Assembly (NCBI GenBank): GCA_000004695.1
Contig: CM000151.3
Span: forward strand, 7,072,001 to 7,136,000
Direction: 5' to 3'
Source: Dictyostelium discoideum
Lineage: Eukaryota
Length of the DNA: 64,000 bases
Below are positions 164-56,174 of the stretch, piece after piece. Each line of letters starts with the position of its first letter. The first letter of the stretch is position 1. Under the pieces are notes generated by a model. The model had not been told where the DNA came from. It made no database searches and saw only the letters and a list, made by a program, of their open reading frames with translations. The translations under genes were made by a program, and so were the position numbers.

Positions 164-186
164 ATGTTAGCAAGTAAGTGTCTAAA

Positions 187-225
<39 letters not shown>

Positions 226-417
226 AATCTAACTTTATCCTTTTTTTAATTAGAATCATTAATCTTCTCTAAAAACTCATCAAAGGCAGACAAAATTTTT
301 TCAAATGATAAATTGACTGTTACTTCTTTTTCTTTAAATGCCACTTGCGAAAAAATTTCAGCTTCAACTACAACTTCTACCTCTATTTTTACAAGACCAA
401 ATTTCTTGAACTACTAA
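164..417 (+). CDS. micro-gene family copy A. Exon 1 at 164–173 (atgttagcaa|gtaagt), exon 2 at 254–417. Product is 57 aa: MLAKSLIFSKNSSKADKIFSNDKLTVTSFSLNATCEKISASTTTSTSIFTRPNFLNY.
   Basis: ATG plus 7 nt ends in phase 1, followed by a GTAAGT donor. An AT-rich intron ends in ...aattag, after which exon 2 stays open to TAA. The architecture and termini are shared with nine other copies. Confidence 0.55.
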
Positions 418-783
418 AAAAAATATATAAATAAACTAAATATATTGGCCGACTATAAATTTAAAATTCTAATTTTAATTGTTTGTTTGTTTTTTTTTTT
501 TAATAAATTTACCAATAATTTTATTAATTTAAATGATTTTATTAATTTAAATGATTTTCCTTTTAAAATTAAAAAAAAAACAATTTCATTTCTAATTAAT
601 TTTTTTTATTAATTTTTTTTTTTCAAACCCTCCATTACCTTTTACTAAAAAAAAAAAAAAAAAAAAATTATCTTATTTTGGTTTTAATATATGTACATGT
701 TTTTTTATTATTTATTTAAATATACAGTTTTTATATCAAGTATTTGTCGGCCTTGATATTTTATATTATTTTTTTATAAAATT

Positions 784-1031
784 TTAAAAATTTAAAAAAT
801 TTGGTCTTGTAAAAAAAGAAGTTGCGTTCTTAATTGAAACAATTTCATTTTTTGAAAAGTTATTTAAAGGTGTTTCACTATGGATACAGTTTAATGAAGA
901 TGAGTTTGTTTTGTTTGAAATTGAAATTAATGATTCTAAAATAATAATAAAAAAAAAATTAGAAATTATGTTTTGGAAAAAAGAAAAAAAATTGTTTTAA
1001 TATTCATTGCATTATACATACTTAATAACAT
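784..1031 (-). CDS. micro-gene family copy J. Exon 1 at 1031–1022 (atgttattaa|gtatgt), exon 2 at 935–784. Product: MLLKSLISISNKTNSSSLNCIHSETPLNNFSKNEIVSIKNATSFFTRPNFLNF.
   Basis: Reverse strand. Same exon and phase structure as the other copies, with the conserved exon-2 start aatcattaatttc and the C-terminus FFTRPNFLNF followed by a stop. Confidence 0.5.
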
Positions 1032-1555
1032 TTTATTATTTTTTTATATAGTTTTTTTATTTATTTCTAAATTTAGAATTTTTGTTTTATTTAAAATGAT
1101 TTTTTAATTAATAATGAATTATTTTTTTTAAACTATTTATATTTTTTTTTTTTTTTTAAGTAAAAGTATTCAAAAACCACTTTTATCTGTTAAATAATAA
1201 AATTTAAAAAATAATTGAACAGATGTTGTCGACATACACACACTCTCAATATAAAAATAGTGTTATCACAAACTTTAAAAGAAGTATGTGCGAATAGATT
1301 TTATTTAATATAGAATCATAAAACCAAAATGATATTTTTTATATATTGATTTTAAAAATAAAAAAAGCAATTTATTATTTTTAATAAATGAAGAAATAAA
1401 TTTAATTAATAAATAAATAATTTAAAAGGGTTGGTTTAAAAAATAAAATAATTATTTAATATGAACCAAAATTAAAAAATGAATTAATTTTGAATTTTTA
1501 TTGGAATAATTGAGTATACATATATTTTTAATTGAATATTAATAAAAGTGAAAAT

Positions 1556-1655
1556 NNNNNNNNNNNNNNNNNNNNNNNNNNNNNNNNNNNNNNNNNNNNN
1601 NNNNNNNNNNNNNNNNNNNNNNNNNNNNNNNNNNNNNNNNNNNNNNNNNNNNNNN
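1556..1655. other. assembly gap (100 N)
   Basis: Run of N characters; it lies inside the repetitive micro-gene cluster. Confidence 0.99.
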
Positions 1656-1789
1656 ATGTCATCATTTGTATTTTTAATTTATAGTGTCATTTTTAGATAT
1701 TCTTTTTTTTTTTTTTCAATTAAAACTGAAATTGTATGTTTATATATATCAGTGTTTTATTTGAAATAAAAAAATAATAATAATAAATG

Positions 1790-2257
1790 AAGTAAAAATA
1801 TTCAAACCACTTGTTGATGATATCCATTATTTAAGTAATCATTGTTGAAAACATATATTTGATATTGTTGTTGTCAAAAAAAAAATTAATATGATTTCAA
1901 CAAGATTAATAAAATAGTTTAAATTATATTATTATTCTTGTTGATATCATTATCCTTGTTTTTTTGTTTTTAAAAACAATTGTCTTTACTTGTATGTCAA
2001 CATAATATTTTTACAAAATTTAAACAATTAATAAAATTGTGTGTTTATTAAATAGTGGTGGTGGTAGGAAGTGGTTGGGGTGGGGTGGTGGGAAGTGGTT
2101 AAATTTTACTTAAAATAATTATTTCGATTTAAAAAATAAAATAGAATTTAAAAAAAAGTATAAATACTTTTTTTTAATTTTATTTTTTATATCAAACAAA
2201 CATTAAATTAAAAACAAAACAAAAACATTAATTAAAAACTATGAAACTATAAATAAA
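1790..2257 (+). promoter_or_regulatory. conserved promoter module of copy B: two TTGTTGATATC-type blocks (1808–1830, 1938–1950), a G-rich box (2055–2098), TATAAATA (2159–2166)
   Basis: The same elements occur in the same order upstream of copy E (5120–5583) and, mirrored, upstream of copy C (3190–3480). The G-rich box (GGTGGTGGTAGGAAGTGGTTGGGGTGGGGTGGTGGG) is highly unusual in DNA that is about 90% AT. Confidence 0.5.
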
Positions 2258-2497
2258 ATGTTATTCAGTATGTATTTTTAATAAAAAAAACAATGAAAAT
2301 ATCAATGAATATAATATTAATTTAATATTTTTTTTTTAAATTTAGAATCATTAATTTCATTATCAAATAAAAATACCACCTTAAATTCATCTTTAATTTC
2401 AAATCAAACAAACAATGATTGTAATGAATTTAAAAATGAAATTACAAACAAAAGTTCTACTGCATTCTTTACAAGACCAAACTTTGTAAACTATTAA
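2258..2497 (+). CDS. micro-gene family copy B. Exon 1 at 2258–2267 (atgttattca|gtatgt), exon 2 at 2346–2497. Product is 53 aa: MLFKSLISLSNKNTTLNSSLISNQTNNDCNEFKNEITNKSSTAFFTRPNFVNY.
   Basis: Canonical GTATGT donor, tttag acceptor, and an in-frame join. TATAAATA lies at about −99 and a G-rich box at about −200. Confidence 0.6.
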
Positions 2498-2584
2498 AAA
2501 AAAATATTATGATAAAAACAATTCCGATAAAAAACTTGTACAAACAATAAAATCTATTTATTTATTTATTTATTTATTTTAAAA

Positions 2585-2632
<48 letters not shown>

Positions 2633-2944
2633 CCTTGAGTGATTTTTAAAGTTGGTTTTAAATTAATTTTTTAAAACTATTGATTTTTTGATATTTTATC
2701 TTTATTAATATGTCTCCTTTGGATTTTATTATTTGCCCACTTTTTCATTTATAAAAGTAATTCGTTTTTTTATCAAATTTTACATAATTTTAAAATTTTT
2801 TTTTTTGTCAAACTTTTCCACAAATAAATAAAGAAAAAACAGAAAAATTATTTTTTAATTTTAAATAAATATATAAATATATTTTTTTTTTTAAATGTAC
2901 AATTTGTTTATCGGTATTAAAATTTTTTTTTTTTTTTTTTTTTT

Positions 2945-3189
2945 TTAATAGTTTATAAAGTTTGGTCTAGTAAAGAATGCAGTAGAACTTATGTTTGTAA
3001 TTTCATTTTTTAATTGATTACAATCATTGTTTGGTTGATAAGAAATTAAAGATGATTTTGAGGTGGTATTTTTATTTGATAATAAAATTAATGATTCTAA
3101 AAAAAAAAAAAAAAAATTCAAAATTAAAATCAACTTCATTATAATATATTTTTAATTATAATTTTTAAAATATACCTACTGAATAACAT
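2945..3189 (-). CDS. micro-gene family copy C. Exon 1 at 3189–3180 (atgttattca|gtaggt), exon 2 at 3096–2945. Product: MLFKSLILLSNKNTTSKSSLISYQPNNDCNQLKNEITNISSTAFFTRPNFINY.
   Basis: The ORF track (2945..3139, minus) covers exon 2. Exon 1 and its donor are found upstream on the minus strand. The promoter is a mirror image of the copy B promoter. Confidence 0.6.
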
Positions 3190-3480
3190 TTTTTATTTTT
3201 ATAGTTTTATATTTAGTTTTTTAAGATTTTATAATGTTAACTTTGTTCGATATAATAAATTAAAAAAAAAAAAAAGTATTTATACTGTTTTTTAAATCGA
3301 AATAATTAAGTAAAATTTAGATAAACACCCACAACCACCACCACTATAGCACATTTTTTTAAAAATTATGTAAAATGATTATGTTGATATACAAGTAAAC
3401 AGTAAAAAAAAAACAAGTATAATGATATCAACAAGAATAATAGTTTAATTTATTAACAACATTTTAAAAATATGTTTCCA
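3190..3480 (-). promoter_or_regulatory. conserved promoter module of copy C: TATAAATA at 3277–3286, a C-rich run on the plus strand (G-box in gene sense) at 3326–3345, ATGATATCAACAAG at 3422–3435
   Basis: It is the reverse complement of the copy B and copy E promoter architecture. Confidence 0.45.
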
Positions 3481-3705
3481 ACATCCATTTTTTTAAAAAA
3501 GGACTTAAAATTTTATTTAATTAATTAAAAAAATAATACAATAAAATTGTTTACAACAAAATTTAATTTTAATTTTTATGATTATTTAAAAAAGAAAAAA
3601 ATAAATGATAATTTGTAAAAAAAAAAATAAAAAATTAATTCTAATTATCTAGAATAATTTATTTTACAATAGTTTTTTTAATAAAAAAAGTTATTTGGTT
3701 GTTTT

Positions 3706-3745
<40 letters not shown>

Positions 3746-3948
3746 AAGCTAAATTGAATTATTTATTTAAAAACCTTTTTTGAACTAATTATAATAATAA
3801 AAATCAAAATAGCTAAACTATTTCACTCAAAAAAAAAAAAAAATGAAAATAATTTTTAAATTTTTTAAATAAATAAATAAATAGTTTTTTATTTGTACAA
3901 GTTTTTGTCGGCAATATAATTTTTTCAATAATTTTTTTAATAGTTTAC

Positions 3949-4085
3949 AAAGTTTGGTCTTGTAAAAAATGCAGTAGAACTTTTACTTGCAATTTCATTT
4001 TTGAATTCAATGCAATTATTATTTAATTGATTTGAAATTAATGATTTTGAGGTGGTGTTGTTATTTGATAATGAAATTAATGATT
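3949..4085 (-). CDS. micro-gene family copy D (partial). Exon 2 at 4085–3949 encodes ...SLISLSNNNTTSKSLISNQLNNNCIEFKNEIASKSSTAFFTRPNFVNY. Exon 1 is lost in the N gap.
   Basis: The exon-2 acceptor (ttag|aatcattaatttc) and the conserved C-terminus are present. Upstream sequence is the gap at 4130–4219. Confidence 0.45.
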
Positions 4086-4129
4086 CTAATAAATAAAAAA
4101 AAAAAAAAAAATAAGTATANNNNNNNNNN

Positions 4130-4219
4130 NNNNNNNNNNNNNNNNNNNNNNNNNNNNNNNNNNNNNNNNNNNNNNNNNNNNNNNNNNNNNNNNNNNNNNN
4201 NNNNNNNNNNNNNNNNNNN
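4130..4219. other. assembly gap (90 N)
   Basis: Run of N. The predicted exon 1 and promoter of micro-gene copy D would fall inside this gap. Confidence 0.99.
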
Positions 4220-5119
4220 ATAAATCATTTTATTTCATATTTATGTTTAAAATATGTACATGAAATCACAATAAACAAAACAACACCTATGTTTAATGAT
4301 TGTTTAAAAATTGTTGATTTAAGAAATGATTTGTATTGATTCTAATAAATTAAAATTTTAACCACAAAATAAAATCCTACCACAATTTATTCTTCCATTC
4401 CTTCTACTATACCCTAACCTATTTAATTATATATTCTAGAATTTGAATTTATTGTAAAATAGTGTTTATACTCCACCAACAAAAAGGATTTAAAAACTAT
4501 TTTAAAAATCATAAAGCTTTAAAACAAAATGTTTGAAATTATTATTTTAAAAGGTTTGGAAAAAAAAGAAAAGAAAAGAAAAAAGAAAATGATATTATTT
4601 ATTAAAAAGAAAAAAACAAAAAAACAAAAAAAGAAACAAACTAAATCAAAATAAACCAATTTAGAATATAATTAATTTCTTGTTTTTCTTTTTTTTTTCC
4701 AAACTTTTAAATTTAGAAAATAATTGATTTCTTGTTTTTCTTTTTTTTTTTAGAATCGCTGGTGTATTTATTTTTTTAATTATTTTATTTTTTGATTTTG
4801 TTTTAATTTATTTCTCTTTAATTTTACTTTTTTTTCGAGTTGCTGATAGCTATGCTATTTATTTTTATTTTATTTTACTTTTACCATTTCTCTTTTATTT
4901 TGTTCTTTTTTTTTTTTAATGAATTTTTTTTTTTTCATTGTTTTAAAAACTTTTAAAAATGAAAAAAAGTATAGGAAAAATGAGAATCATAAAAAACAGG
5001 ATGATGAATAAGTTTTGATCACTTATATTTTTTAAAATATAGTGCATTTTTACATGACATATTATTATATTTTTTAAATTTGAATTGAAAAATTATATAA
5101 ATGAAGAAAAAAAATGAAA

Positions 5120-5583
5120 ATTAATTAATGATGATATCAATTTTAAAACAATGATTGTTGAAAACATACAATATTTATGATTTTTATATGGTAGTTGAAG
5201 AAAATTATTGATTAAAAAAATTATTATCTATTAATAAAAAGGTTTTAAATTATATTATTATTCTTGTTGATATCATTTTGCTTGGCTTAATTTTATATTA
5301 ACATTTAACTTTACTTGTATGTCAACATAATATTTTTACAAATTTTAATTTATTTAATTTATTAAATAATTGTGTGTTTATTAAGTAGTGGTGGAGGGGG
5401 GTGGGTGGTTGTGAGTGTGTGATTAAATTAATTATAACTAAAAATTATTTCGATTTTAAAATTAAAAAAAAAAACAGTATAAATACTTTTTTTAATTTTA
5501 ATTTTTTATATCAAACAAAAATCATTAATTAAAAACTAAAGTTAAATAAATTAAAAACTATAAAAAAAAAATATATTTATAAA
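5120..5583 (+). promoter_or_regulatory. conserved promoter module of copy E: TTGTTGATATCAT at 5275–5287, G-rich box at 5387–5424, TATAAATA at 5479–5486
   Basis: It aligns with 1790–2257. The G-box variant is GTGGTGGAGGGGGGGTGGGTGGTTGTGAGTGTGTG. Confidence 0.5.
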
Positions 5584-5839
5584 ATGTTATTCAGTATGTA
5601 TTTTTTTTTTTATTTTTTTATTAGAATTATTTTTTAAAAATATCAATGAATTTAATATTAATTTAATATTTTTTTTTTTAAATTTAGAATCATTAATTTC
5701 ATTATCAAATAAAAATACCACCTTAAATTCATCTTTAATTTCAAATCAAACAAACAATGATTGTAATGAATTTAAAAATGAAATTACAAACAAAAGTTCT
5801 ACTGCATTCTTTACAAGACCAAACTTTGTAAACTATTAA
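5584..5839 (+). CDS. micro-gene family copy E. Exon 1 at 5584–5593, exon 2 at 5688–5839. The coding sequence is identical to copy B.
   Basis: Exon 2 matches B over all 152 nt. About 460 bp of upstream sequence is also highly similar to B (5120–5583 versus 1790–2257), which points to a recent duplication about 3.34 kb away. Confidence 0.6.
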
Positions 5840-6493
5840 AAAAAAAAATAATATGATATAAACAATGCCGATAAAAAACTTGTATATTTAATAAAAAAAA
5901 TTAATTATTTATTTATTTATTTATTTAAAAATAAAACCAAATTTTTTATTTTTTTATTTTTTTTTTTTTATTTTTTTTTTTATTTTTTTGAACATTTTCT
6001 ATCCTGACCCTGCAAATATAGCACCAAAAAAAAAAATTTAATTCAAAAAAAATAAATTTAAATAAAATTAAATGTTTTTTGAACTTCGTTTTTTTTTTTA
6101 TTTTATATAAATTTTTTTTTTTTTTGGGTACTTTTGTTCACTTTTTTCTTTTTATTTTTATACTTAAAATCTTTCAAAAAAAAAAGAAAAAACAAAAATT
6201 GATCAAATAATGAACTTAATATATTTCTTACCAAAAAATAAATAATAATAATAATAATAACGATAAAAATAATACTCAGTTCTTATTTTACATATGTAAC
6301 CTTTTTATTTTTTTAGATAATTTGTCATAATTATTATTTTTATTATTATTATTTAAAGTTTAAAAAAAAAAAAAGAAAAAAAAAAAAAATTTTAGTTTTT
6401 TTAATTAAGTTTTGTTTATTAATTTTAATTTATTTTACAAGTAAAGTTCGGCCATGTAAATTTATATATATATATAAAGTTTTTCGTTTTTTT

Positions 6494-6736
6494 TTAATAA
6501 TTTACAAAATTTGGTCTTGTGAAAAAGGCAGTTGGACTCTTCATTGTAATAGAATTATTTGTAGTACTAATTGAATTTATATTATTAGATTCAATTGAAC
6601 TTGATAATGATGATGAATTTTTGTTTGATAATGAAAGTAAAGATTCTATTTAAAAAAAAAAAAGTAAATTAATTAATACAATGACTTTAAAAATTTTTTT
6701 TTTTTTTTTTTTTTTTTTCAACTTACTGAATAACAT
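6494..6736 (-). CDS. micro-gene family copy F. Exon 1 at 6736–6727 (atgttattca|gtaagt), exon 2 at 6645–6494. Product: MLFKSLLSLSNKNSSSLSSSIESNNINSISTTNNSITMKSPTAFFTRPNFVNY.
   Basis: Reverse strand, same architecture. The promoter has TATAAATA at about −100, a G-run, and the GATGTTGTCGACATACA element. Confidence 0.55.
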
Positions 6737-6925
6737 TTTAAATTATAGTATATTAATATAGTTTTTATATTTGTTTTTTTATTTATTTAATTAATAAAAT
6801 TTTTTTTTAATGATTAAAATAATTTTTTTTTTTTTTATTTATACTTTTTTTTTTATTTTTAGTTTAAACATTTAATATAACCCCCAAAAAACCACTTAAT
6901 AACACTAATAACAAATTTGTAAAAT

Positions 6926-6946
6926 AGATGTTGTCGACATACATGT
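6926..6946. promoter_or_regulatory. conserved element GATGTTGTCGACATACA(T/C), followed by a CA run, about 190 bp upstream of minus-strand copy F. An identical element lies at 1218–1240, about 190 bp upstream of copy J.
   Basis: Two copies of an exact 17-mer containing a GTCGAC core, each flanked by (CA)n or ACACAC. Both sit at the same distance from the ATG of a minus-strand micro-gene. Confidence 0.4.
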
Positions 6947-7601
6947 GTTTTAAAAATTAAAAGGTTTTTTTGATAAACACACACACATTAAAAGAAGAGA
7001 TTTTATTATTTTAATTAAAAGATAATTTTAAAAAATGTAGATATGGTATCAACATCATTTTCTTTTTGACAAAAATAAAAATAATTATTTTAAATTTTAA
7101 TTTTTAATGATTATATAATTATTTACCCGCTCATTGATCACTATTTTTTTCCAAATAATTGTTATCATCATTTTTAAAATCAATTTTCTTCTTTTATAAG
7201 TTTTTTATTTTATTTTTATAATAATTTTAATTTTCTTAAGGAGTATTAATATGGATATAATAACAATATAATTGATTTTTAAAGTAAATCAAGTAAAATA
7301 AAAATAACAAAATTTCTTCATTTACTTTATTTATTTTAAAAATAAAAAGGTTTTTTATTTAATTTTAAAAAATTATAACATCATCCTTTTTTAAAATAAA
7401 AGAAGATAAAAATGATGAAATTATTTTATTATTTTTTACTTAATGATGTATTATCTTAGGGGACATCAAATTGAGAAAAAAAAAAAAAAATTATTTAAAT
7501 TAAAAATTTTATTCTTTTTTTTTTTTTTTTTTTTTTCTTTCCTTAAATTTATATAAAAACTTAAAAACTAGAACTTCTAAAAATAAATAAAAGAAATTAA
7601 A

Positions 7602-7843
7602 ATGCTATTTGGTATGTTAAAATTAATTTTATATAATTGGTTGATATTTATTTATTAATATTTTAAATTTTAGAATCAATTAAATTAAACATAAAAATAA
7701 ATAATTCTTTAAATGAATGTTCAAATTTATTAATTAGTGAAAATAATAAACATTCATTATATATTAATTCATTAAATACAATTACAACTAGAAATCAAAC
7801 TAGTAGCTTTTTTTTTTCTAGACCAAATTTCCAATGTTTTTAA
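7602..7843 (+). CDS. micro-gene family copy G (divergent). Exon 1 at 7602–7611 (atgctatttg|gtatgt), exon 2 at 7674–7843. Product is 60 aa: MLFESIKLNIKINNSLNECSNLLISENNKHSLYINSLNTITTRNQTSSFFFSRPNFQCF.
   Basis: Same exon and phase structure. The C-terminal motif is the variant FFFSRPNFQCF. Confidence 0.5.
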
Positions 7844-8309
7844 AAATAGATAACTAATTGTTAATTTACATTAAGAATAATTGTTCGAATAACTCAATAT
7901 TTAATTATTATTATGAATTAAATCATTTTTAATTTTAGAAAAAATAATAATTTATAAAAAAAATAGTAAAAATAAAAAATAAATTATTATTATTAAATTT
8001 CCAAAATCATACTTCATTTTTTTGATAATAACAATAATAATTATTTTGACAAAAAAAAAAAAAAAAAAATTGATAATTATTTCTTTTTGATAAACAAAAA
8101 TTAAAGTTGATATCAATAAATTTATTAGCCGGACAATTATTCAATATATTTTAAAAAATCAAATATCTAAAATATAAATCTTGATTTTAATAAATGTTGA
8201 TATCATACATATTATTTCTGCTTCTCATATAAATTTAAAAATAGCAACATATTCAATTTACAAATATATTTTATTTTTCAATCTATAGATTTATCAATTT
8301 TTTATTTTT

Positions 8310-8349
<40 letters not shown>

Positions 8350-8606
8350 ACCCATAGTAAAGAAGGGGTCAATTTTTAATTATCAAGTTATACGATTATT
8401 TCTATTTTAATTTTTATTTTATTTTTATTTTTATTTATTATTTTACTTTAATCAAAAAAAAAAAAAAAAAAAAAGTAAATATAAATAGTATTTTTTTTTT
8501 TTAAAAAAATAAATACTTAAAAATAAATCACAAATCAAAACATTAATTAATATAAATTATTAAAAAAAAAAAAAGAAAAATATTAAAAAAATAAATATAT
8601 TTTAAA

Positions 8607-8847
8607 ATGTTATTCAGTATGTATTTTAAATTAATTTTATTTCATTGTAAATTATAAATAATAAATATTAATTATTTTTATTTTTTTTTTTAAAATAGAA
8701 TCATTAATTTCATTATCAAACAATGTTTCAAAAGTTTCAACATTAATTTCAGTTGAAAACAATGAAAATTCTATAAATACTACAACAAATACTATAACAT
8801 TAAGAAGCACAGTCTTCTTTACAAGACCAAATTTTATTAATTATTAA
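8607..8847 (+). CDS. micro-gene family copy H. Exon 1 at 8607–8616, exon 2 at 8699–8847. Product: MLFKSLISLSNNVSKVSTLISVENNENSINTTTNTITLRSTVFFTRPNFINY.
   Basis: Exon 1 is atgttattca|gtatgt, the acceptor is aaaatag, and the conserved termini are present. Confidence 0.55.
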
Positions 8848-9016
8848 TTAAAAAAATAATTTATATATAAAAACAAAACATGGCCGAAATTTACATGTTT
8901 TAAAAAAAGTTAACGAAATAAAATCCTTTTGATTATAAAAAAAAAAATAAAAAAAAAAATTATATGTTTTCTTTGTATTTTTATTTTTTATTTTTTATTT
9001 TATTATTTTATTATTT

Positions 9017-12000
9017 TTAACTATCTTTTTTAAAAGTTAAAAATTTTTCAAAAGAAAATTTGTTTGTACCAAATATTGATAATAAAACTGGTAATAAGAC
9101 TAAACCATGAACAGCTGCTAATAAACAAATACTTATATACATTTTGAAATAGTATATGATAAAGATTTCTGATTTTGAAAAAGCTAAAACTACACAACCT
9201 AAAAGTTTTGTGATAAAGATACCACTAAATATGTTTGCACCCATTTCTGATATTGCAAATTTAACCTTTTCATCTCTTGAATAATGTTTTGGTGATCTGA
9301 TGAATGTACTTGCAATATGAACGCAAAATTCTATTGATATACCAACAGCCATAATTAAATTTACGACAGAGATTGCATTCAAAGATATATCCCATAATGT
9401 CATGACGGCCAAAAGGTCAACAACCGTCATACCAACACAAAGTACAACCAATATTGAAACCAATGGATTCATTAATATAGCTAGTGATACGAAAAATACA
9501 CTTCCCAATGCCAATAAAATACCTTTTAATGCCACTTGTTTTATGGTTAAATAAGCTTCAAAGTAACAATAGAAAATACTATAAGTGAAAACTTGAGCAT
9601 CTGAATGGTCAGCCAAATAATAACTTGTGGCAAGTGCATTGATGAAATCATTTTGAGTTCTTAGAGTTGTATGATAAGCATCGAAACGAGTTGCTGCAAT
9701 ACTACCATCACTATTGAATTTTACATCACCAGTATATGCTAAACCTGCCAATGGACATTGATCTGTATTTGTGAAATTTAAAAATGCAGGTAAATACTTT
9801 TTAAATAGTGATGGATCGGGTCTACCAGATTTTTCCAATGGGAAACATTGTTGATCACAACCAGGTTCATCACTATTACAATAGGTACCATTATCGAATG
9901 CTGTACAACAACCGACAGTATTACTCCATTGTAACATATCATCTAACCATGATGAAATTCCAGGTGAAATGAATGGTGCATTATCAAATGTATTTATAAC
10001 TGAATTATTATTACAACCACCTACTGTACAAAATTGATTTTGAATTGATGGTATGGAGAAATCATAATTTCCTTTTACAACTATATACATTGGTGGTCCA
10101 ACCTCTAAGAATTGATTCATATTTGTGAAATAAGCTTGAAGATAAGAGTTTCTTGGTAGTGCAACCTTTTGATCTAAACCAATTGGAATTTGATATGCAT
10201 AATTTATTGAAAACAATAACATTGCAATAAAGAATATTATAATTAATAATTTTGAAATTGGATGAACTAAAAATGGAGCATAATATTTTGTAAATAATTC
10301 CTTTAATAATGTTGTTTTCTTTTTTGATTTCTTTTTTAACATTCTCTTTTTTGATAATGGTGATGATTCTTCATTATTAATATTTAAACCATCAACAACA
10401 TTTAATGCATCAACATCATAATTAAAATTATGAGCATTATCATTTCTATCATCATCTTCACCATTAATTAAAAGTGGTTCATTTTCAATTTCTTCTTGAT
10501 TATTATTATTATTGTTATCATTGTTATTAAGATTATTATTATTATTATTATTATTACTATTTAATTGTTGATCAATATTATCAAATGGATCATCTTCTAA
10601 ATCTGAATTATCACCATTTAATGATAAGCATGGTAAACAATCAACTCTTCTTGATTGTAAACGTTTTGTATCTAAAACTAATAAACAAGCGAATGCACTA
10701 ATTTGTAATAGGAAGTCAAAGAAAACTGCAATTGAAGCATAGAATGAAAATGCTTTTACTGCTGGCATTTTAGTTAAGGAACCTAATAGGAAAGCAAATG
10801 ATTCACTTAATGATGCTAATGCAATTGATGGACCAACCTTTGCAAGTGTACGAGCAAATGATTCTTCTGGTGTTGGCATTTGATGATGATTTTGATTAAA
10901 ACCACTAATTGATGATGATGATGATGATGATGCAACATGTAAAGATTCAAAAGTATTTACTAAAATGAATATATTATCAACACCAATGGCTAACACTAAG
11001 AATGGTATAACTTCACTAATGATTAGAGTTGCTTTTATACGTAGAATTGAACAAATACCAACAGAGATTATAATTGAACATGCAACTATACAAATACCAG
11101 ATAGACCCAATGCAAATCTTGAACGAATGAAAAATGAATTGAATCTTCTTGGAAATGGGTAATAACTACCTAAACTAAGGGAGATATATAAAAACATAAC
11201 GAAATAACTAACGATAATCGTTGGTATATCTGCATTACCTTCTCTTGCCAATTCATCTTGTACTGATCTTTGAGCATTGAATGATATTTCGAATGGACAT
11301 GAAGGATCATTTGAAATCTCTTGAATTTTATTTAACCAAACTTGTTCCCACATCATTGATCTATCAATCATTGAATCTGGATTATTCAATAGGAAAGTGG
11401 TGACAAATGCTTTTGCCAACGTTGAATTATCATTCCAACCACCCAATACTATCTTTGGATTTACAGGTACACCAGTTGAATCCATACATTCTGGTGAAAG
11501 TAATTGTGATTTACATTGTTCAAACCAACCAATTACATTATCCTTTTGTTGATTTAATTTATTTTGATCACGTTGAAAAATACCTGTTATACTCTCAACC
11601 AAACAACCACGTTTAGTAGGTTCAAAACATAATTGATCCAATGTTATAATCCTATTTGAACCATCATTAAGCTTTACACTTGTATTCTTCATTAGTTGTG
11701 TCTCTATATCAATTAATGATTTAAATAAATCATAATTGAAAATCGTTGATAAATTCTTTTGTTTTGGTATTAAAATTAATTGTTCAACACGATAGAATGG
11801 ACCGAAATGATCATCGAAATATTGTTTCTCAATTGCTGATCTACTATCTGGTGATACCCATAATTTTACTGGATCAGTTTCAATCTCTAATGAAATAATA
11901 CCAATACCAATACCAATTGTAAATAGTAAACAACATATTAAAACTATTATTGGTCTTTTTGTAATATTAATTCCATACCAATAAAATACTTTTTGAAAAA

Positions 12001-13437
12001 TATTTGAATAATTGCTACCACTATTATTGTTATTATTTCTATTATTATTGGTATTTTGAATTTCATCATTATTAACTTGTTGATTAATTATACCACCACT
12101 AATACCAAGTATTCTTCTTGAATTTCTATTTGAAGCTGTTTTATCAACAATTATACAAGCTAAAATTACTATTGATAATAACAATAATGTTATCATTATA
12201 TAAATGGATACACCCATTGCAAATGAACAATTCCATTCTTTTCCATCATCTAATTTCCACATACAACTTGCTGTTTTACCATCTATCATTTGATGAGTAG
12301 TTACAAATGGTATCAATACTGTACAAATGAATAAAATACCCAATATTATCATCATTACTGTTTTAAACTTTTTACCCTTAAAATATCTAATCTTTGATGA
12401 ATATTTAAATATTAACCAAATGCTAAATCCAAATAATAATGATAATAAAAATAATAAAAATGACCAAACTATCCAAATTGTTAAATGTGGTACTCTTAAA
12501 AAAAAAAAAAAAAAAAAACCAAAATATTAATATATATATTTAAAATATATAATAAATAATAATAATAATATTATAAATTTACTTACTCTATTAATAAATG
12601 AGTTTGAATGATTGTATCATTTAATAAACCAATATCTTTATAGGAAGGGGGAGGTAAACAAGCATCACGACATTGATCACAAGAACAACCTTCAGAACAT
12701 GGTACGATTGCATCATTATAACCTTCATTATTAAAAACCCAATTTAATTCTTTGAATGTTGGATTCACTGCAGAGAAAACACCAGTGAAGAACAATTGTG
12801 CAGTTGGAAACATTACACCAAATGGTTGAGCACCATTGGCATGTACATCTCTACATGAATTATATAAACCATTGGCGAAATCTGGATGTAAAACGAAATC
12901 GATGCTAATGATTTGGTCAGTTTTATTATCAACTTTAGTTGGTACCATAAATGATTTCTGATAGGGTGAACATGACGATGCACACCATAGATTATAAAGA
13001 TTAACCATACAACTACTACATCTACCAAATATACCACCCGCTACCAACATATTGGTTTGTAAGATTAAAGTTTGATTATAATTACAACATGATTCAATTG
13101 AATATTCTGGATGTGTTAATTGACATGTATTTGGTGCGATTTCCGTATTATTCTGAAATTTTAATATTAAAAAAAAAAAAATAATAAAAACATAAAAAAT
13201 AAAAAAAAAAAAAAAATAAAAAAAAAAAATAATTAATTTTTCATAGAAAATAAATATTTTTATTTTTATTAATAATAAAAAACTTACTAATGGTGGAAAA
13301 TCTTTTGCTTCAACAAATGAAGATGAAACGCCATACATTGAACAACCTAATGTTGTATTATAAGGGTAAGGTGATTGACATTGTATTATATTTATAATCG
13401 ATAAAAAAAAGATTAAAAAAACTATTATTTTATTCAT
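9017..13437 (-). CDS. Niemann-Pick C1-like protein (NPC1/Patched family with sterol-sensing domain), about 1,397 aa. Exons at about 13437–13288, 13152–12587 and 12494–9017.
   Basis: The N-terminal Cys-rich NPC1 NTD motif CCNYNQTLILQTNMLVAGGIFGRCSSCMVNLYNLWCASSCSPYQKSF is present. The SSD segment GLSGICIVACSIIISVGICSILRIKATLIISEVIPFLVLAIGVDNIFIL is present. There are 13 predicted TM helices and a signal peptide. Donors are GTAAGT, the acceptors are tttcag and tttaag, and the phases are consistent (0, 2). Confidence 0.8.
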
Positions 13438-28435: not shown

Positions 28436-28472
<37 letters not shown>

Positions 28473-28520
28473 TTAAAAAATTTGGTCTTGTAAAAGTGCA
28501 ACTCTTTAAACTTATACAAT
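27560..28520. repeat. tandem segmental duplication, two units of about 470 bp (27560–28000 and 28040–28520)
   Basis: Both units carry ...cagtattcaact(t/a)gg(a/g)atgtggaaaccaggaa(c/t)atttggtgtttggggtga(a/g)atgt...gaagactgggca...tttttctttgataatgatggtgataa... Both also carry ...caattcgagaggat(a/g)tttttt...aaaagtttaaaaa(t)tttggtc(c/t)tg. Unit 1 has an open frame (…MWKPGTFGVWGEMYSVILKKEDWAAHHHLRNVYFFFDNDGDKY). Unit 2 has an internal deletion and stops. Confidence 0.7.
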
Positions 28521-28695
28521 TAATTGTTTTGTTGGGAATTTCATTATTGTTTGAATTTATTTTTGATCTTTCCATAGTAATTTTAAGTGAAAAAATAAAC
28601 GATTCTATTATTTATTATTTTAAATATAAATATTAGTTTTTTTATTTTTTTTATTTAATTCTATTCTCTAATATATAAAACTTACTAAATATCAT
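28465..28695 (-). CDS. micro-gene family copy I (dispersed copy). Exon 1 at 28695–28686 (atgatattta|gtaagt), exon 2 at 28604–28465. Product: MIFKSFIFSLKITMERSKINSNNNEIPNKTINCISLKSCTFTRPNFLNF.
   Basis: Same architecture about 20 kb from the main cluster. It is embedded in a ~470-bp tandem duplication whose first unit at 27940–28000 carries only a truncated relic. Confidence 0.45.
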
Positions 28696-35803: not shown

Positions 35804-38920
<3,117 letters not shown>

Positions 38921-39034
38921 GGAACCAATGGTTTTATTTTATTTTTTTATTTTTTGGAAGAAAAAAAAATGGAAAAATAAGAGTATGAAAAAAGAAACAC
39001 CCTTTGCTTTTCTCACCTTTCTAGTAAAAAGAAA

Positions 39035-39071
<37 letters not shown>

Positions 39072-39082
39072 GAAAGATAGGT

Positions 39083-39105
39083 TTTGCCTATCAGGCAAAG
39101 CTTTT
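39083..39105 (+). terminator. GC-containing hairpin (ttttgcct-atc-aggcaaag) about 160 nt downstream of the stop at 38920
   Basis: An 8-bp stem with one mismatch and a 3-nt loop. The flanking DNA is almost pure A/T. Confidence 0.25.
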
Positions 39106-39125
39106 GGTTTCCAGCTTATTTATTG

Positions 39126-39160
<35 letters not shown>

Positions 39161-39695
39161 CCCAGATTTATTAAGAATAAAATCAATAAAAAATATATGT
39201 ACATAAAAAAAAAAAAAAAACTTTAAAAGTAATTATTTAAACATTATTTGTTTTATTTTTTTTATTTATTTTTTATTTTTTCGTTTTATTTTTTTTATTT
39301 ATTTTTTATTTTTTTAGTAATTTTATTTAATATGTTAAATTTGGTTTGATTTAAAAATTCAAATTTCCAATTAGATTTGTTGAACTTCGTAGTGATGGTA
39401 AAATAATTTTTTTTTTTTTTTTTTTTTTTTTTCCAAAAAACTAATAATGAATTATGCCAATAGTGTGAAGAATGAATAAATTTAAATTTAAATCCATCAA
39501 CGTAATATTTACACATTCTTTGTTTTTTCCTTTTTTTTTTTCTTTTTCTTTTTTTCTTTTCTTTTTTTTTTGTTTTTTTTTTTTTTTTTTTAAATTTTAA
39601 TTTTTTAATTTTATTTTTTTTTATTTTTATTTTTTTTTTTTGTTTTCATTTTTTTTTATTTTTTTATTTTTTTATTTTTATTTTTATTTTTATTT

Positions 39696-39741
<46 letters not shown>

Positions 39742-40261
39742 TAATATAAAACGAATTAATAATATTAATTTTTCATAAAATTTTAACATTATTTTTTCAA
39801 TCCATTTTATAAAACAAAAATTAATAGAAGACACCTTATAGTAATTATTAAAATAAATAAAAATAAAAAAACAATTTAGTAGCGCAATAACAGTGTCACA
39901 AACAAATACCAATTAGTTTTTCTTTTCTATTTTTGTTTTTTTTTTTACAAAAAAAAAAAAAAAATAAAAATAAATAAAGAAAATAATAAATAGAAAAAAA
40001 AAAAAAACAAGCAAAAACAAAGAGATTAGAAAAAATCAAATTGAAAAAAAAAAAAAACCAATTAATTTGGACAATGCAATCTTGTATGGGCAATAAATTA
40101 TCAAATATTAGCATAAGTGGAACTTCAACAGTTTGAATTGATAAAGTTTAAATAATTAAAAAATCAAATTCATTCATCCTTTTTCTCATTACCTCATTAT
40201 TTCTCTTAAAAAAAAAAAAAACAAAAAAAAAAAAAAAAAAAAAAAAAAGTTTTATAGTAAT

Positions 40262-40366
40262 CAAAATCATAAAAATCATAGTCATAATCATCATATCATA
40301 ATCATAATAATCATAGTCATAAAATCATATTCATAGTCATAATCATAATAATCATAATCAAAATAG
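40262..40366. repeat. degenerate (ATCATA/GTCATA)n hexamer array of about 105 bp, about 170 bp upstream of the ATG at 40533
   Basis: The array reads atcataaaaatcatagtcataatcatcatatcataatcataataatcatagtcataaaatcatattcatagtcataatcataataatcataatc. Confidence 0.8.
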
Positions 40367-40403
40367 AATAATAATATAAAAAAAAAAAAAAAAAAAAAAA
40401 AAC

Positions 40404-40453
<50 letters not shown>

Positions 40454-40462
40454 AAAATTAAT

Positions 40463-40507
<45 letters not shown>

Positions 40508-40532
40508 TTGTTTCACTTTCAAAGCAAACACA

Positions 40533-40917
40533 ATGAACTTAAGTGATAGTGACAATGATACTTTGATAGCATCGTGTTTTGACTTTATTGATGTCGATGA
40601 AAACTATGATAATTCAGAAGATGAAGATGAACAATATAGCAACTCATCTTATAATTCAATGATCCCATTCTTTAAACCAACAACACCAACATCAGTAATT
40701 CCATCATCATCTTCATCTTCTTCTTCATCATCATCATCATCATCTTCTTCTTCAACAACTGCAACAACTGCAACTGCAACCACAACAACCACAACAACCA
40801 CAACAGCAGCAAACAATGTTGATAAAAATAATAAACAATTGAATAATAGTTTAATAAACAATAATAGCAATAACAACAATAACCATAGCAGCAGCAACAA
40901 CATTAGTAAAAATAATA

Positions 40918-40971
<54 letters not shown>

Positions 40972-43300
40972 TTAATAATAATAATATTAATAATAATAAA
41001 AACAATGATTCTGATGATGATTTATTTCAAAATAGTAGCTCAAATTTTGAAAATAAAAAAAACAGAAGAAGAGAGAGAATTAATAATAATAATAATAATA
41101 ATGAAAGTACTTCCACCACATCAACCACAACCAGCACACTTCCAGTTACAGGAGCAGCAACAGCAACAAAATCAGCGGCAACAACAGGAGCGGTTACACC
41201 AGTTATTCAATCATTACAACAGTTTCAAATTAATAATGATGTTAGCCATTCACCATCCTACCACTTTCAAGATCCACTAAAAATTAGTAAACCAAAGAAA
41301 ACCACCACCACTACTACCACCACCACTACAACCTCCTCTAGCTCAGTTAATTCTTCATCCAACCCTTTAATTTTAACAGCCAATGAGAGAAAATCAAAAA
41401 AAGATCAAAAACCTCAACCTCAACAACAGGTTGCCTCTACAAGTTCAGATGCCTCTGCTTTTAAAATTTTAAAAAGAAATGATGATCCAATTGGTAAGTT
41501 AAATAGAATCAAGTATCATAATACTTTAACCATTAATACTAATCGATTATATTATATAGATCCAGACCAATTAAATAAACTTTTCAAACATGGAAACCAA
41601 TCTTCATCACCAACAATCAACCCAATTTTAAAGCAACAACAACAAACAAATACTAAATCAAATAATGATATTTCAAATACAGGTAATATTAACTATAATA
41701 ACAATGGAAGAAGAGAAAGACAATCAAGAAATAAACCACAAAATAGATTGAATTCAGTAAATAGTAATATTAATAACAACAACAACAATAATAATATTAA
41801 TAATAATATTAATAATAACAATAACAATAACAATAACAATAACAATAACAATAACAATAACAATAACAATAATAATAATAATAATAATAATGATGATGAT
41901 GATGATGGATTATCAAATCAAAACAATGGTATTGATAAAAATGAAAAACTAAAGCAATTTGGTAGAGTTTTTGGAGAATCACCAATTCATTATGATTTAG
42001 ATACGGTTACATTTTTACCATCAAATATATTTCAAAAGGGTGAAGTTGTATTGGTACCAAGATCAAGAGGTGGTTTCACTTATGCAAAAATCTATGAAGC
42101 ATCAGATTCAAATATTTGTCATAATGATCCAACAGTTCATCATCATGTTGTTCAATACCGTGCGGTTTATCCATCAAATGGTAAAAGGGATAATCTTTAC
42201 AAGGATTTATCAGCAATTTACTTGGGTAAATTAATACCAATGGAAAGATTACCACCAAATGTCAAAAAGTATACATTAACCCCTCCAAATGAGAGCTTTT
42301 CAATCATTGGTCAAAAAGCATCGGTAAGAGATTTACAGGGTATTTTATTCTCACCATTTTCAAAGTTTCATATGAATCAAATCGTATTGGTACCAAGAAG
42401 TAAAGGTGGTTTCACTTATGGTTGTATCGTTAAGGAGTGTAGAGTAACTTGTAAAGTCAATGATGTTAAACATGATGTACAAGGTCATCGTGTAGTCGTT
42501 GAGAAGAGTAAAGATCATACCGTTATCAAGGATTTAGCAATTGGTAATCTCGGTAAAATATTTACATCTGTTGAAAATAATCAATCATCACTTAATCCAT
42601 TGAATGGTTTAAATTTAAATAGTAATAATAATAATAGCAATAACAATAGCAATAATAATAATAACAATAATAATAATAATAATACAAATTTAGTTACAAC
42701 AAATTTAAATAATAATAATAATTTTAAAATTAGACATTCAATTAGTAATGATAGATCATCACGTGGTGGCAACAATAATTTACGTAGTGGTGGTGGTGGT
42801 AGCAACAATAGGGATCATAAAAAGCAATCAAAGGAAAAGAGAAAGCAAAATCAATATGATCAATTAGCTGCTGCAATGCTACAAGAAATTGTCGAAAGTA
42901 ATCCAAAAAATATTAATAATAATAATGAGGAAGAGGATGAGGAGGATGAAGAGAATGAGGATGATAATATTCAAGTTAATGAAGAGGAAGATGGTGAATC
43001 ATCTGAGGTGGATGGGCCATTATCATCTGAAAATGAAGAAGAACAAGAAGTTGATGGAGATGATGAAGATGATGGAGATGATGAAGAAGATGATAATGAT
43101 GATGAAGAAAATGATGAGGATAGTGAGAAAGAGTATGAGGTTCAGGATAATCAAGAAAATCATTCAAATGAAATTGAACAAGATTCTGATGATAATGATG
43201 ATGAAGATGATGATGAAGAAGAAGAGGAAATCTTATGGACAGGTCAAAAATTAAATACTCCAGCAGTTTCTTCTGTACCAGTAATTACTTCTCAACCATC

Positions 43301-54404: not shown

Positions 54405-54708
54405 ATGACTCTCTTTTGTAGGTTTTACTAAATTAAAAAAAAGTTTTTTTTTTTAGAATAATAATTAACAATTTGTATTTTTCTTTATAATTTTAAAATT
54501 AGCATCATTATCATCATTAAGCACTGGTTCTTTGAAATCAAGTGTTTCTTCAATTGAAACTGGTAGTTCAAGTGGTTCATTTGGTTCAAATGAAACATCG
54601 GGATGGGGTCACCATCATTGGAATAGTTGTCATCCATGTCCACCACCACGTCCAATTTGTCGTCCATGTCCACCACCATGTCGTCCAGTACCAAGATGTC
54701 ATCATTAA
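54405..54708 (+). CDS. hssA/2C/7E-family-like small protein, 72 aa. Exon 1 at 54405–54417 (atgactctctttt|gtaggt), exon 2 at 54503–54708. Product: [72 protein letters not shown].
   Basis: A 13-nt first exon ends in phase 1, followed by an intron of about 85 nt. The N-terminus is MTLFSSLSS and the body is S/G-rich with a Cys/Pro/His-rich C-terminus. Family assignment is from memory of hssA/2C/7E proteins. Confidence 0.55.
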
Positions 54709-54988
54709 AGTTTAATTTTAAATAAAATTAATAAATAGACCTTTAAAATGTTTGGAATTTAAATAAATAATTTTTCTTTTTTTAAAAAATATATCCAAAC
54801 ACATTGAATTTGATTTTGGAAAATTTACTACCAATAAAACTAATGATAATAAAATTCTTTTATTAACAAAATTTATTATTAAACAGAAATATAGAATGTA
54901 TTACTGATGCTCAAAAAACTGATGATTTAAAATATGTTAGAGAATGGGTTTATTCCTTTGTGAATCAACGTCCAATACATAATCCAAT

Positions 54989-55026
<38 letters not shown>

Positions 55027-55173
55027 CCTCGTCCTAATTTGGGATGTGCCATTGTGACCACTAAATCCATTTTCAATTTATTTCAACAAAGTTTGCAGGG
55101 TAAATTAAAAAATATAAATTGCATAGGAAGTTTATTTTTAATTAAATTTTTATATTTTTATCAAAAATCTATT

Positions 55174-55459
55174 TTAATATTTATAATGGCATCTTGGTTC
55201 TGGACGGCATGGTGGACATGGACGGCAAATTGGACGTGGTGGTGGACATGGATGACAACTATTCCAATGGTGGTGACCCCATCCAGATGTTTCATTTGAA
55301 CCAAATGAACCACTTGAACTACCAGTTTCAATTGATGAAACACTTGATTTCAAAGAACCAGTGCTTAATGATGATAATGATGCTAATTTTTATAAATTAT
55401 TTATTAATAAATTAAAATTTTTTTTTTTTTTAGGAAAAAAACTTACAAAATAGGGTCAT
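55174..55459 (-). CDS. hssA/2C/7E-family-like small protein, inverted paralog, 73 aa. Exon 1 at 55459–55447 (atgaccctatttt|gtaagt), exon 2 at 55382–55174.
   Basis: On the minus strand the product is [73 protein letters not shown]. It is about 95% identical to the plus-strand copy and the two genes converge. Confidence 0.5.
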
Positions 55460-55885
55460 TTTAAAATTTTAATAGTTTCTTGTTTAAAAATTAGAGTTTG
55501 ATTTAATATTTTTTTTTTCTAATTTGGTTACAATTTATAGTTTTTTTTTTTTCTAAAAAAAAGAATAAAAAAAACAAATAATTTTTTAATTTTATTTTTA
55601 AAATCATACTTTTTGTTTTTTCATTTCTATTTTTTTTATATCAAAAAACTTAAACTCCCCCCCCCCCATTATATTTTTCTATTTGACTTGTTATATTATT
55701 CATATGACTTGTTATAGTAATTATTATTATAAATGGGGCCTTTGGATTTTGAATTATCAAGAATTCTTAAAATAAAAAAGTCTTTAAAAAAAAAAAATAA
55801 AAAAAAAATTATTCATAAAATTAAAAAACTATAAAAACAAAAAATCAATTTTTAAAATATTAATTATAAATCAAAAAATAAAAAC

Positions 55886-56174
55886 ATGAGTATTTTCAGT
55901 AAGTATAATTTTTTTTAGAAATATTGTGTAAAATTTGTCATAAATATTTTAAAAATAATAATAAATAATTAATTACAATTATTCCTACAAAATAAATGTT
56001 TTAATAATTAAACCACTTTGTTGATCCCCCTAACATGGTGAATTTTTTAATTTCGAAATTTTTGCTCAAATTTTCCTGGATTTTACAATATTTAAATAAA
56101 TAAAATAAACTAAATTTAAACCCTTTTTTTAAATAAATATAGGTTCATTATCATCATTATCCACTGGTTCTTAA
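55886..56174 (+). pseudogene. truncated third hssA-like copy. Exon 1 at 55886–55898 (atgagtattttca|gtaagt), exon 2 from 56143. The reading frame stops after [14 protein letters not shown].
   Basis: The exon and phase architecture and the first 10 codons of exon 2 are conserved. Homology is then lost and an in-frame TAA occurs. Confidence 0.45.

Follow-up and report, generated by a model that had tools for sequence, protein, structure and literature searches.

We analysed a 64,000-nucleotide (nt) stretch of the Dictyostelium discoideum genome (strain AX4, chromosome 2; contig CM000151.3, positions 7,072,001 to 7,136,000; hereafter the window), which is 78–85% A+T and carries two families of very small, two-exon genes. 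Three genes at 54–56 kb resemble the hssA/2C/7E family, and ten micro-genes, named here for the RPNF motif near the end of their products, lie at 164–8847 (nine loci) and 28465–28695 (one locus). An earlier note on this DNA, made from the sequence alone, had proposed that the micro-genes share exon architecture and an N-terminal motif with the hssA-like genes and look like a divergent sister subfamily, or a convergently organised one. We find that the two families share only a 5′ module and are otherwise unrelated. In this module the ATG and two or three codons precede a phase-1 intron, which interrupts the codon following Leu-Phe; the residues x-S-L-x-S-L-S come next.

The hssA/2C/7E family comprises about 100 D. 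discoideum genes, some of which are among the most highly expressed transcripts of cup cells; its function is not established, and knockouts have no phenotype (PMC2257962, PMC8554618, PMC6198379). Vicente et al. (2008) defined 96 sigN-related genes, and a first exon holding a 13-nt piece of the open reading frame (ORF) is the hallmark of the family, present in 89 of the 96 (PMC2257962). The same list holds members of 43–56 residues and three members with a 10-nt first exon, sigN132 (DDB0216937), sigN176 (DDB0185480) and sigN183 (DDB0218149) (PMC2257962). The three hssA-like loci of the window are as follows.

54405..54708, + strand: DDB_G0276685 (g1); exon 1 54405–54417 (13 nt), intron 85 nt, exon 2 54503–54708; 72 residues.
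55174..55459, − strand: DDB_G0276687, also named beiE (g2); exon 1 55459–55447 (13 nt), intron 64 nt, exon 2 55382–55174; 73 residues.
55886..56174, + strand: truncated copy (g3); exon 1 55886–55898, intron 244 nt, 32-nt exon-2 stub 56143–56174 ending TAA.

All three loci lie exactly where the earlier note had placed them, and each first exon is, as it had said, 13 nt long and phase 1 (ATGACTCTCTTTT|GT in g1, ATGACCCTATTTT|GT in g2 and ATGAGTATTTTCA|GT in g3). The intron of about 80 nt that it gave for each gene describes g1, is rough for g2 and fails for g3. Once spliced, g1 and g2 encode exact matches to annotated proteins (XP_643033 in the case of g1), and the g1 product starts MTLF|SSLSSLS, with the bar at the intron site. 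These two genes are 83% identical over 318 nt, and their products fall into a cluster, formed at 90% identity, that numbers ten D. discoideum proteins encoded on chromosomes 2, 4 and 5 and to which the matches of a single-sequence search with g1 were limited. The truncated copy encodes 14 residues followed by a stop. In a blastn search against the window, its similarity to g1 and g2 extended over about 45 nt around the splice acceptor and ended at the g3 stop codon; the other matches were AT-rich noise. We conclude that g3 is a partial copy of an hssA-like gene.

The assignment of these genes to the hssA/2C/7E family agrees with the literature, in which DDB_G0276687 is described as a relative of hssA/7E/2C and placed in a tight clade of nine such cup genes with a 13-bp exon 1 and very high expression (Kin et al. 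2018, PMC6198379). Its expression is placed in late cup cells both by a promoter-lacZ fusion and by RNA-seq (PMC6198379), and beiE is a published late cup-cell marker (PMC6198379, PMC9117722). The hssA-like genes of the window are members of a known, already published cup-cell clade within the hssA/2C/7E (sigN, Pfam 'Coiled') family. The note's label 'bona fide' holds for this kinship and is too strong by profile, as PF05710 gives g1 20.7 bits against a gathering cut-off of 21.4 and covers residues 1–37 only. In an alignment that includes the true PF05710 proteins P0042 and P0043, both of them database hits, the cup clade keeps M1, S9, S11, S30, S33, N34 and C38, and the N-terminal consensus that the note had given for the family is correct.

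The intergenic sequence around these genes has features of its own. The divergent promoter between beiE and g3 (55460–55885) contains a run of eleven C residues at 55657–55667 and a direct repeat of TGACTTGTTATA at 55684–55695 and 55705–55716. The ATG of g1 lies only about 70 nt past the stop of the upstream gene (54334). In one column of the table of Kin et al., the value is 33338 for DDB_G0276687 versus 82 for DDB_G0276685 (PMC6198379); this roughly 400-fold lower expression of g1 may be due to the short distance between its ATG and the upstream stop.

To locate the micro-genes, we scanned the window for the RPNF motif and then modelled splicing. Their first exon is 10 nt long (ATG plus 7, phase 1) and usually reads ATGTTATTCA, their introns span 62–94 nt and their products 49–59 residues, so the tiny phase-1 first exons and short introns described earlier for the 0–9 kb genes are real.

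164..417, + strand: DDB_G0276637; exon 1 164–173, intron 80 nt, exon 2 254–417; 57 residues.
784..1031, − strand: DDB_G0276635; exon 1 1031–1022, intron 86 nt, exon 2 935–784; 53 residues.
2258..2497, + strand: micro-gene (DDB_G0276613/DDB_G0276707); exon 1 2258–2267, intron 78 nt, exon 2 2346–2497; 53 residues.
2945..3189, − strand: micro-gene, apparently unannotated; exon 1 3189–3180, intron 83 nt, exon 2 3096–2945; 53 residues.
3937..4085, − strand: exon 2 only, probably DDB_G0276649 (annotated 'partial'); exon 1 lies in the N gap 4120–4219.
5584..5839, + strand: DDB_G0276707; exon 1 5584–5593, intron 94 nt, exon 2 5688–5839; 53 residues.
6494..6736, − strand: DDB_G0276651; exon 1 6736–6727, intron 81 nt, exon 2 6645–6494; 53 residues.
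7602..7843, + strand: DDB_G0276653; exon 1 7602–7611, intron 62 nt, exon 2 7674–7843; 59 residues.
8607..8847, + strand: DDB_G0276655; exon 1 8607–8616, intron 82 nt, exon 2 8699–8847; 52 residues.
28465..28695, − strand: DDB_G0276669, isolated; exon 1 28695–28686, intron 81 nt, exon 2 28604–28465; 49 residues.

These gene models are backed by exact matches of spliced products to annotated proteins: eight of the ten loci correspond to hypothetical proteins in the annotation, one matches none exactly, and one has lost its first exon in a 100-N gap. The locus without a match (2945–3189) is complete, with the product MLFKSLILLSNKNTTSKSS..., and appears to be unannotated in AX4 because the protein collection lacks this exact product. 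The copies at 2258 and 5584 encode identical products, and DDB_G0276653 is a divergent copy that ends FSRPNFQCF. The earlier note had given the termini of the micro-gene products as MLFKSLISLS and FTRPNFVNY. The first is exact in three window copies and replaced by close variants in the others; the second is exact in four, and the remaining copies end F[TS]RPNF[LIQ][NC][YF]. Two 100-N assembly gaps, at 1556–1655 and 4120–4219, fall within the cluster. The second of these gaps removes one first exon, and the copy number of the region may be understated.

The RPNF micro-genes form a separate, unnamed and uncharacterised family that is specific to Dictyostelium. All ten window loci fit its traits, namely a 10-nt phase-1 first exon, a length of 49–60 residues, the C-terminus F-[TS]-R-P-N-F-x-x-[YF] and a match to the family profile. 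When 1.84 billion representative proteins were searched with the profile, 17 matched at an expectation value (E) of 1e-3 or less, among them the representatives P0005, P0016, P0017 and P0020 (E = 4e-16 to 5e-11). Sixteen of the matches are 41–59 residues long and the last is a 101-residue model that matches over residues 1–51 only; the source was Dictyostelium for every match looked up. Cluster look-ups added DDB_G0276699, 701, 703, 751, 743, 737, 749, 723, 639, 641, 619 and 467, as well as DDB_G0275641, DDB_G0275477 and an 'expressed protein' of D. purpureum. In D. discoideum there are at least 24 micro-gene loci, on chromosome 2.

The cluster is syntenic in two further species, with at least 12 copies in D. 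firmibasis and at least 11 in D. citrinum, beside an NPC1-like gene. We infer that its position is conserved in D. discoideum, D. firmibasis and D. citrinum from this NPC1/Patched-like neighbour, which is present in all three (window ~9000–13000, − strand; locus L001, 15444–19754; locus L002, 13532–17928). The first exon measures 10 nt in nine of nine readable window copies; another 21 spliced copies, taken from three other species, have this length as well. The architecture ATGTTATTCA|GTA is kept in four species, and the first exon of the D. purpureum homologue is identical (ATGTTATTCA|GTAAGT).

In the 30 spliced copies from four species, ORF and splice sites are preserved and the product length stays within 49–60 residues, with synonymous wobble at invariant residues (for example TTT/TTC, AAT/AAC and TCA/TCT). 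The pooled ratio of nonsynonymous to synonymous substitution rates (dN/dS) is 0.26 across codons 2–11, rises to 0.49 in the middle and drops to 0.06 over the final ten codons. By this measure the final ten residues, [FY]F-T-R-P-N-F-x-N-[YF], are under strong selection, the first ten under moderate and those in between under weak selection. Judged on these sequence features, the micro-genes are coding genes. That they might instead be annotation artefacts, non-coding repeats with chance ORFs, is suggested by the literature, in which we found no functional, expression or proteomic data for them, and by AlphaFold, which predicts no fold: the micro-peptides, about 53 residues long and rich in Ser and Asn, are predicted to be disordered (predicted template modelling score, pTM, 0.15), as are both families (pTM 0.15–0.16). 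We regard this as extremely improbable given the reading frames, splice sites and lengths kept across four species, the synonymous wobble beside invariant residues, the C-terminal dN/dS, and the 'expressed protein' label of the D. purpureum homologue.

A literature search by gene identifier returned only a G-quadruplex study that used two micro-gene promoters, and no paper describing the family. The elements in question are G-rich boxes at window 2053–2100 and 5386–5412, about 190–200 nt upstream of the two micro-genes with identical products; they correspond to p12 and p14, two published oligonucleotides that form G-quadruplexes (PMC6511855) and whose coordinates, chr2 7074056–75 and 7077389–409, map to window ~2055 and 5388. 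Some D. firmibasis and D. citrinum copies have similar G-rich boxes upstream, and in D. purpureum such boxes lie near 1010–1100 of locus L003. Three words also recur upstream of the 30 copies. ACTTGTATGTCAACAT is found at −203 to −267 in nine copies (from D. discoideum, D. firmibasis and D. citrinum), the related word TGTATGTCGACAACATC in five, and TTGTTGATATCAT at −243 to −370 in twelve. Their sites include window 1992–2007 and 5317–5332, 1940, 5266 and 3432 (−), and sites in loci L001 and L002. These conserved words are possible shared regulatory sites.

We then asked how far the resemblance between the two families extends. Three methods, hhalign, hmmsearch and a position-specific scoring matrix (PSSM), agree on one register, in which Leu2 of the micro-genes pairs with Leu3 of the hssA-like genes. 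With this one-codon offset, the micro-gene intron (after nt 10, codon 4) and the hssA-like intron (after nt 13, codon 5) fall in the same aligned codon and in the same phase. The link between the families rests on these roughly ten N-terminal residues and on the intron at the same aligned codon and phase. Both families have the N-terminus [LI]-[LF]-x-S-[LI]-x-S-[LI]-S, and the closest approach is that of the cup-cell clade, LFSSLSSLS versus LFKSLISLS. The micro N-terminus fits the hssA consensus M-[TS]-[LI]-[LF]-x-[SA]-[ILF]-x-S-[IL]-S only if consensus residue 2 is deleted.

We scored this match with an anchored PSSM built from micro residues 2–10, against a background of 26,302 9-mers. The cup-clade sequence LFSSLSSLS scored 12.9 bits, a value reached by ~1e-4 of the background and ~0.25% of shuffles. 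At the DNA level, the pattern ATG-(codon)?-[L/I]-[F/L]-N|GTA.GT, searched on both strands of the 64 kb, picks out eight micro-genes and the three hssA-like genes and nothing else; eight of the nine readable micro-gene first exons fit, and the copy at 164 falls outside because it has Ala at residue 3. A divergent hssA-like gene of D. firmibasis scored 10.7 bits on the same PSSM. This gene (locus L004, 5077–5392, − strand), which encodes 80 residues, has a 13-nt first exon, ATGGCAATTTTAG|GTAAAC, and a product that starts MAILESFYSLS and ends CGCN; its second exon begins AATC, as in the micro-genes. It has no precomputed Pfam match, which indicates that PF05710 misses divergent members.

To test the match from the hssA side, we placed N-termini on the g1 scaffold and scored the resulting chimeras with PF05710 as a family-wide profile. 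In a first design, which omitted Thr2, one shuffle scored 11.7 bits; resolution was low because HMMER filters hide scores below ~12 bits, and the test was later redesigned with Thr2 restored. The native N-terminus gives 20.7 bits, and removing Thr2 from it gives 13.7, a loss of 7 bits from this residue alone. When four micro N-termini were preceded by MT, all four chimeras were reported (17.7, 18.1, 16.2 and 14.8 bits), compared with three of 22 composition-matched shuffles (17.6, 15.3 and 12.9 bits). The other 19 shuffles were not reported, nor was a chimera carrying an unrelated N-terminus.

We consider a common ancestral origin of the 5′ module plausible yet unproven, and the best reading of these data, with a probability of roughly 0.55. 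The principal rival is that the resemblance arose by chance or convergence, from the abundance of Leu, Ser, Ile and Phe, recurrent amphipathic Leu/Ser N-termini, and a generic layout of short first exon and short intron. Several results weigh against common origin, and some of them speak for this rival. Scored by the hssA profile, the micro products show no significant similarity: PF05710 gave no match at E ≤ 10 to seven of them, and hhalign aligned 10 columns with the cup clade (P = 0.032) and 20 columns with a broader hssA alignment (P = 0.016), with probabilities of 1.6–2.8% over both runs. The profile search of 1.84 billion representatives returned no intermediate between the families and no hssA-type protein. 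The N-terminal similarity is short and of low complexity, and in a proteome of ~12,500 genes chance could account for the peptide match taken by itself. Canonical PF05710 members score 4–4.7 bits on the micro PSSM, at about the 1% level, and unrelated ORFs hold 9-mers of up to 18.5 bits, such as LFKSLIDIE. In the chimera test, the best shuffle (17.6 bits) nearly equals one of the micro N-termini (17.7 bits). Tiny first exons appear to be common in Dictyostelium generally, and the window holds other candidates. An alignment of first exons, introns and second-exon starts at the nucleotide level lines up the splice sites, and the AT-rich introns contribute no usable signal. Finally, neither the literature nor the text of RNA-seq and proteome supplements yielded expression or proteomic data on the micro-genes.

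Whether the similarity reaches past residue 11 was addressed with a hidden Markov model (HMM) of the micro-gene family. In a local hmmsearch, six hssA-type proteins had nominal P values of 0.001–0.04. Composition-preserving shuffles equalled these scores in 0.2–54% of trials, so the apparent extension to residues 12–35 is compositional. We therefore dropped the nominal P values as evidence of a link. The same applies to a pairing seen by eye, 55% identity over 22 residues between P0042 and one micro copy, which by the shuffle test is compositional beyond residue 11. That shuffles reach the HMM scores also favours a chance resemblance, as do the bodies and C-termini, which share nothing and differ sharply in composition: the micro proteins contain 0.2% Gly, 1.4% Cys and 2.5% Pro, and the g1/g2 pair 8.3% Gly, 8.3% Cys and 14.5% Pro.

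What makes chance less likely is that the intron codon and phase coincide in the register set by the peptides; this is independent information; neither coincidence forces the other. The DNA pattern is unique to these genes within 128 kb of two-strand window sequence, the anchored score lies at ~1e-4 for a fixed position, and 19 of 22 shuffles stayed below the reporting level when all four real micro N-termini were reported. We accordingly rate chance or convergence as a substantial possibility, somewhat short of even odds. The sister-subfamily idea fares unevenly under these tests. It lacks profile significance, the point on which the earlier note had said that it could fail, and it retains the common register and intron phase, the anchored ~1e-4 match, and the precedent of 10-nt first exons in three sigN genes.

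The micro-genes are not hssA members. They resemble hssA/2C/7E genes in being tiny, with two exons and a phase-1 intron a few codons past the ATG, in intron length (60–120 nt in hssA/2C/7E), in encoding Ser-rich products of fewer than 120 residues, in their clustering, tandem or inverted and in many cases on chromosome 2, and in their restriction to Dictyostelium; the 10-nt first exon is shared with the three listed sigN members. Unlike hssA/2C/7E genes, they have a first exon of 10 rather than 13 nt, no Thr or Ser at position 2, and no S-x-G-S-N-S..C motif, Gly/Cys-rich body or CGCN-type end, and they possess a strongly constrained C-terminus of their own, FFTRPNFxNY. Judged by size and chromosome, they are absent from the published list of 96 genes. 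The cup-cell clade, despite its similar N-terminus, differs in its 13-nt first exon and in a C-terminal half rich in His, Trp, Cys and Pro, and it is reported to be confined to D. discoideum, whereas the micro family reaches as far as D. purpureum. Because the micro-genes fail three defining hssA features, they should not be filed as hssA members. The earlier note's view that they are not ordinary members holds.

An alternative is that the micro-genes are full-length but extremely diverged hssA/2C/7E members whose Gly/Cys-rich body has been remodelled. The bodies of hssA proteins do vary, and the cup clade itself shares only residues 1–37 with PF05710; the hssA-like gene of D. firmibasis whose product ends CGCN escapes Pfam, and the sigN list includes members as short as the micro-genes and others with a 10-nt first exon. 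Yet neither the mid motif S-x-G-S-N-S..C nor a Cys-containing end occurs in any of 36 distinct micro products (the 30 spliced copies plus database members), and the proteins end in F[TS]RPNF; this constrained C-terminus is absent from hssA proteins, and the profile search brought back no hssA-type protein. We judge whole-gene divergence to be improbable.

Elsewhere in the window, at 36000–42000, the GC skew is −0.29 to −0.37 and the AT skew is positive, coinciding with long Gln/Asn-rich ORFs. Such ORFs are typical of the homopolymer-rich coding sequence of the D. discoideum genome.

If the 5′ module is indeed of common origin, one codon (Thr2) would have been lost or gained since the families parted. 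The module could be a relic of a very ancient duplication, or a partial duplication could have captured it and become fused to new downstream sequence. Partial copies do arise, as the truncated g3 demonstrates, and duplications of this kind would offer a route by which the module was joined to new coding sequence. Within the micro-peptides, the C-terminal decapeptide is probably the functional determinant, perhaps a binding or ligand epitope, and the variable middle may be a disordered linker. The shared Leu/Ser N-terminus, together with its intron, may serve as a common module for expression or sorting.

Precursor-type small peptides as a class have conserved ends and a variable middle. The micro-peptides resemble them in their constrained N-terminal decapeptide, relaxed middle and highly constrained C-terminal decapeptide, and differ in having no signal peptide, dibasic processing site or known receptor. 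The RPNF micro-genes might encode an unrecognised family of peptide precursors of group-4 Dictyostelium, born by fusing a copy of the hssA 5′ module to new sequence; the decapeptide FFTRPNFxNY would serve as an epitope for signalling or binding, and the many tandem copies, differing in their middles, would supply diversity. We offer this as a speculative proposal that is unlikely to hold.

The stakes are modest, as the matter concerns one clade and an evolutionary link that is unproven. The micro-genes, with at least 24 copies and a very strongly constrained C-terminal decapeptide, are candidates for a lineage-specific family of peptides. Should hssA/2C/7E and a second multi-copy family have only the 5′ module in common, the module rather than the protein body may be the conserved functional or evolutionary unit, and its start codon, phase-1 intron and Leu/Ser decapeptide would provide a concrete, testable handle.

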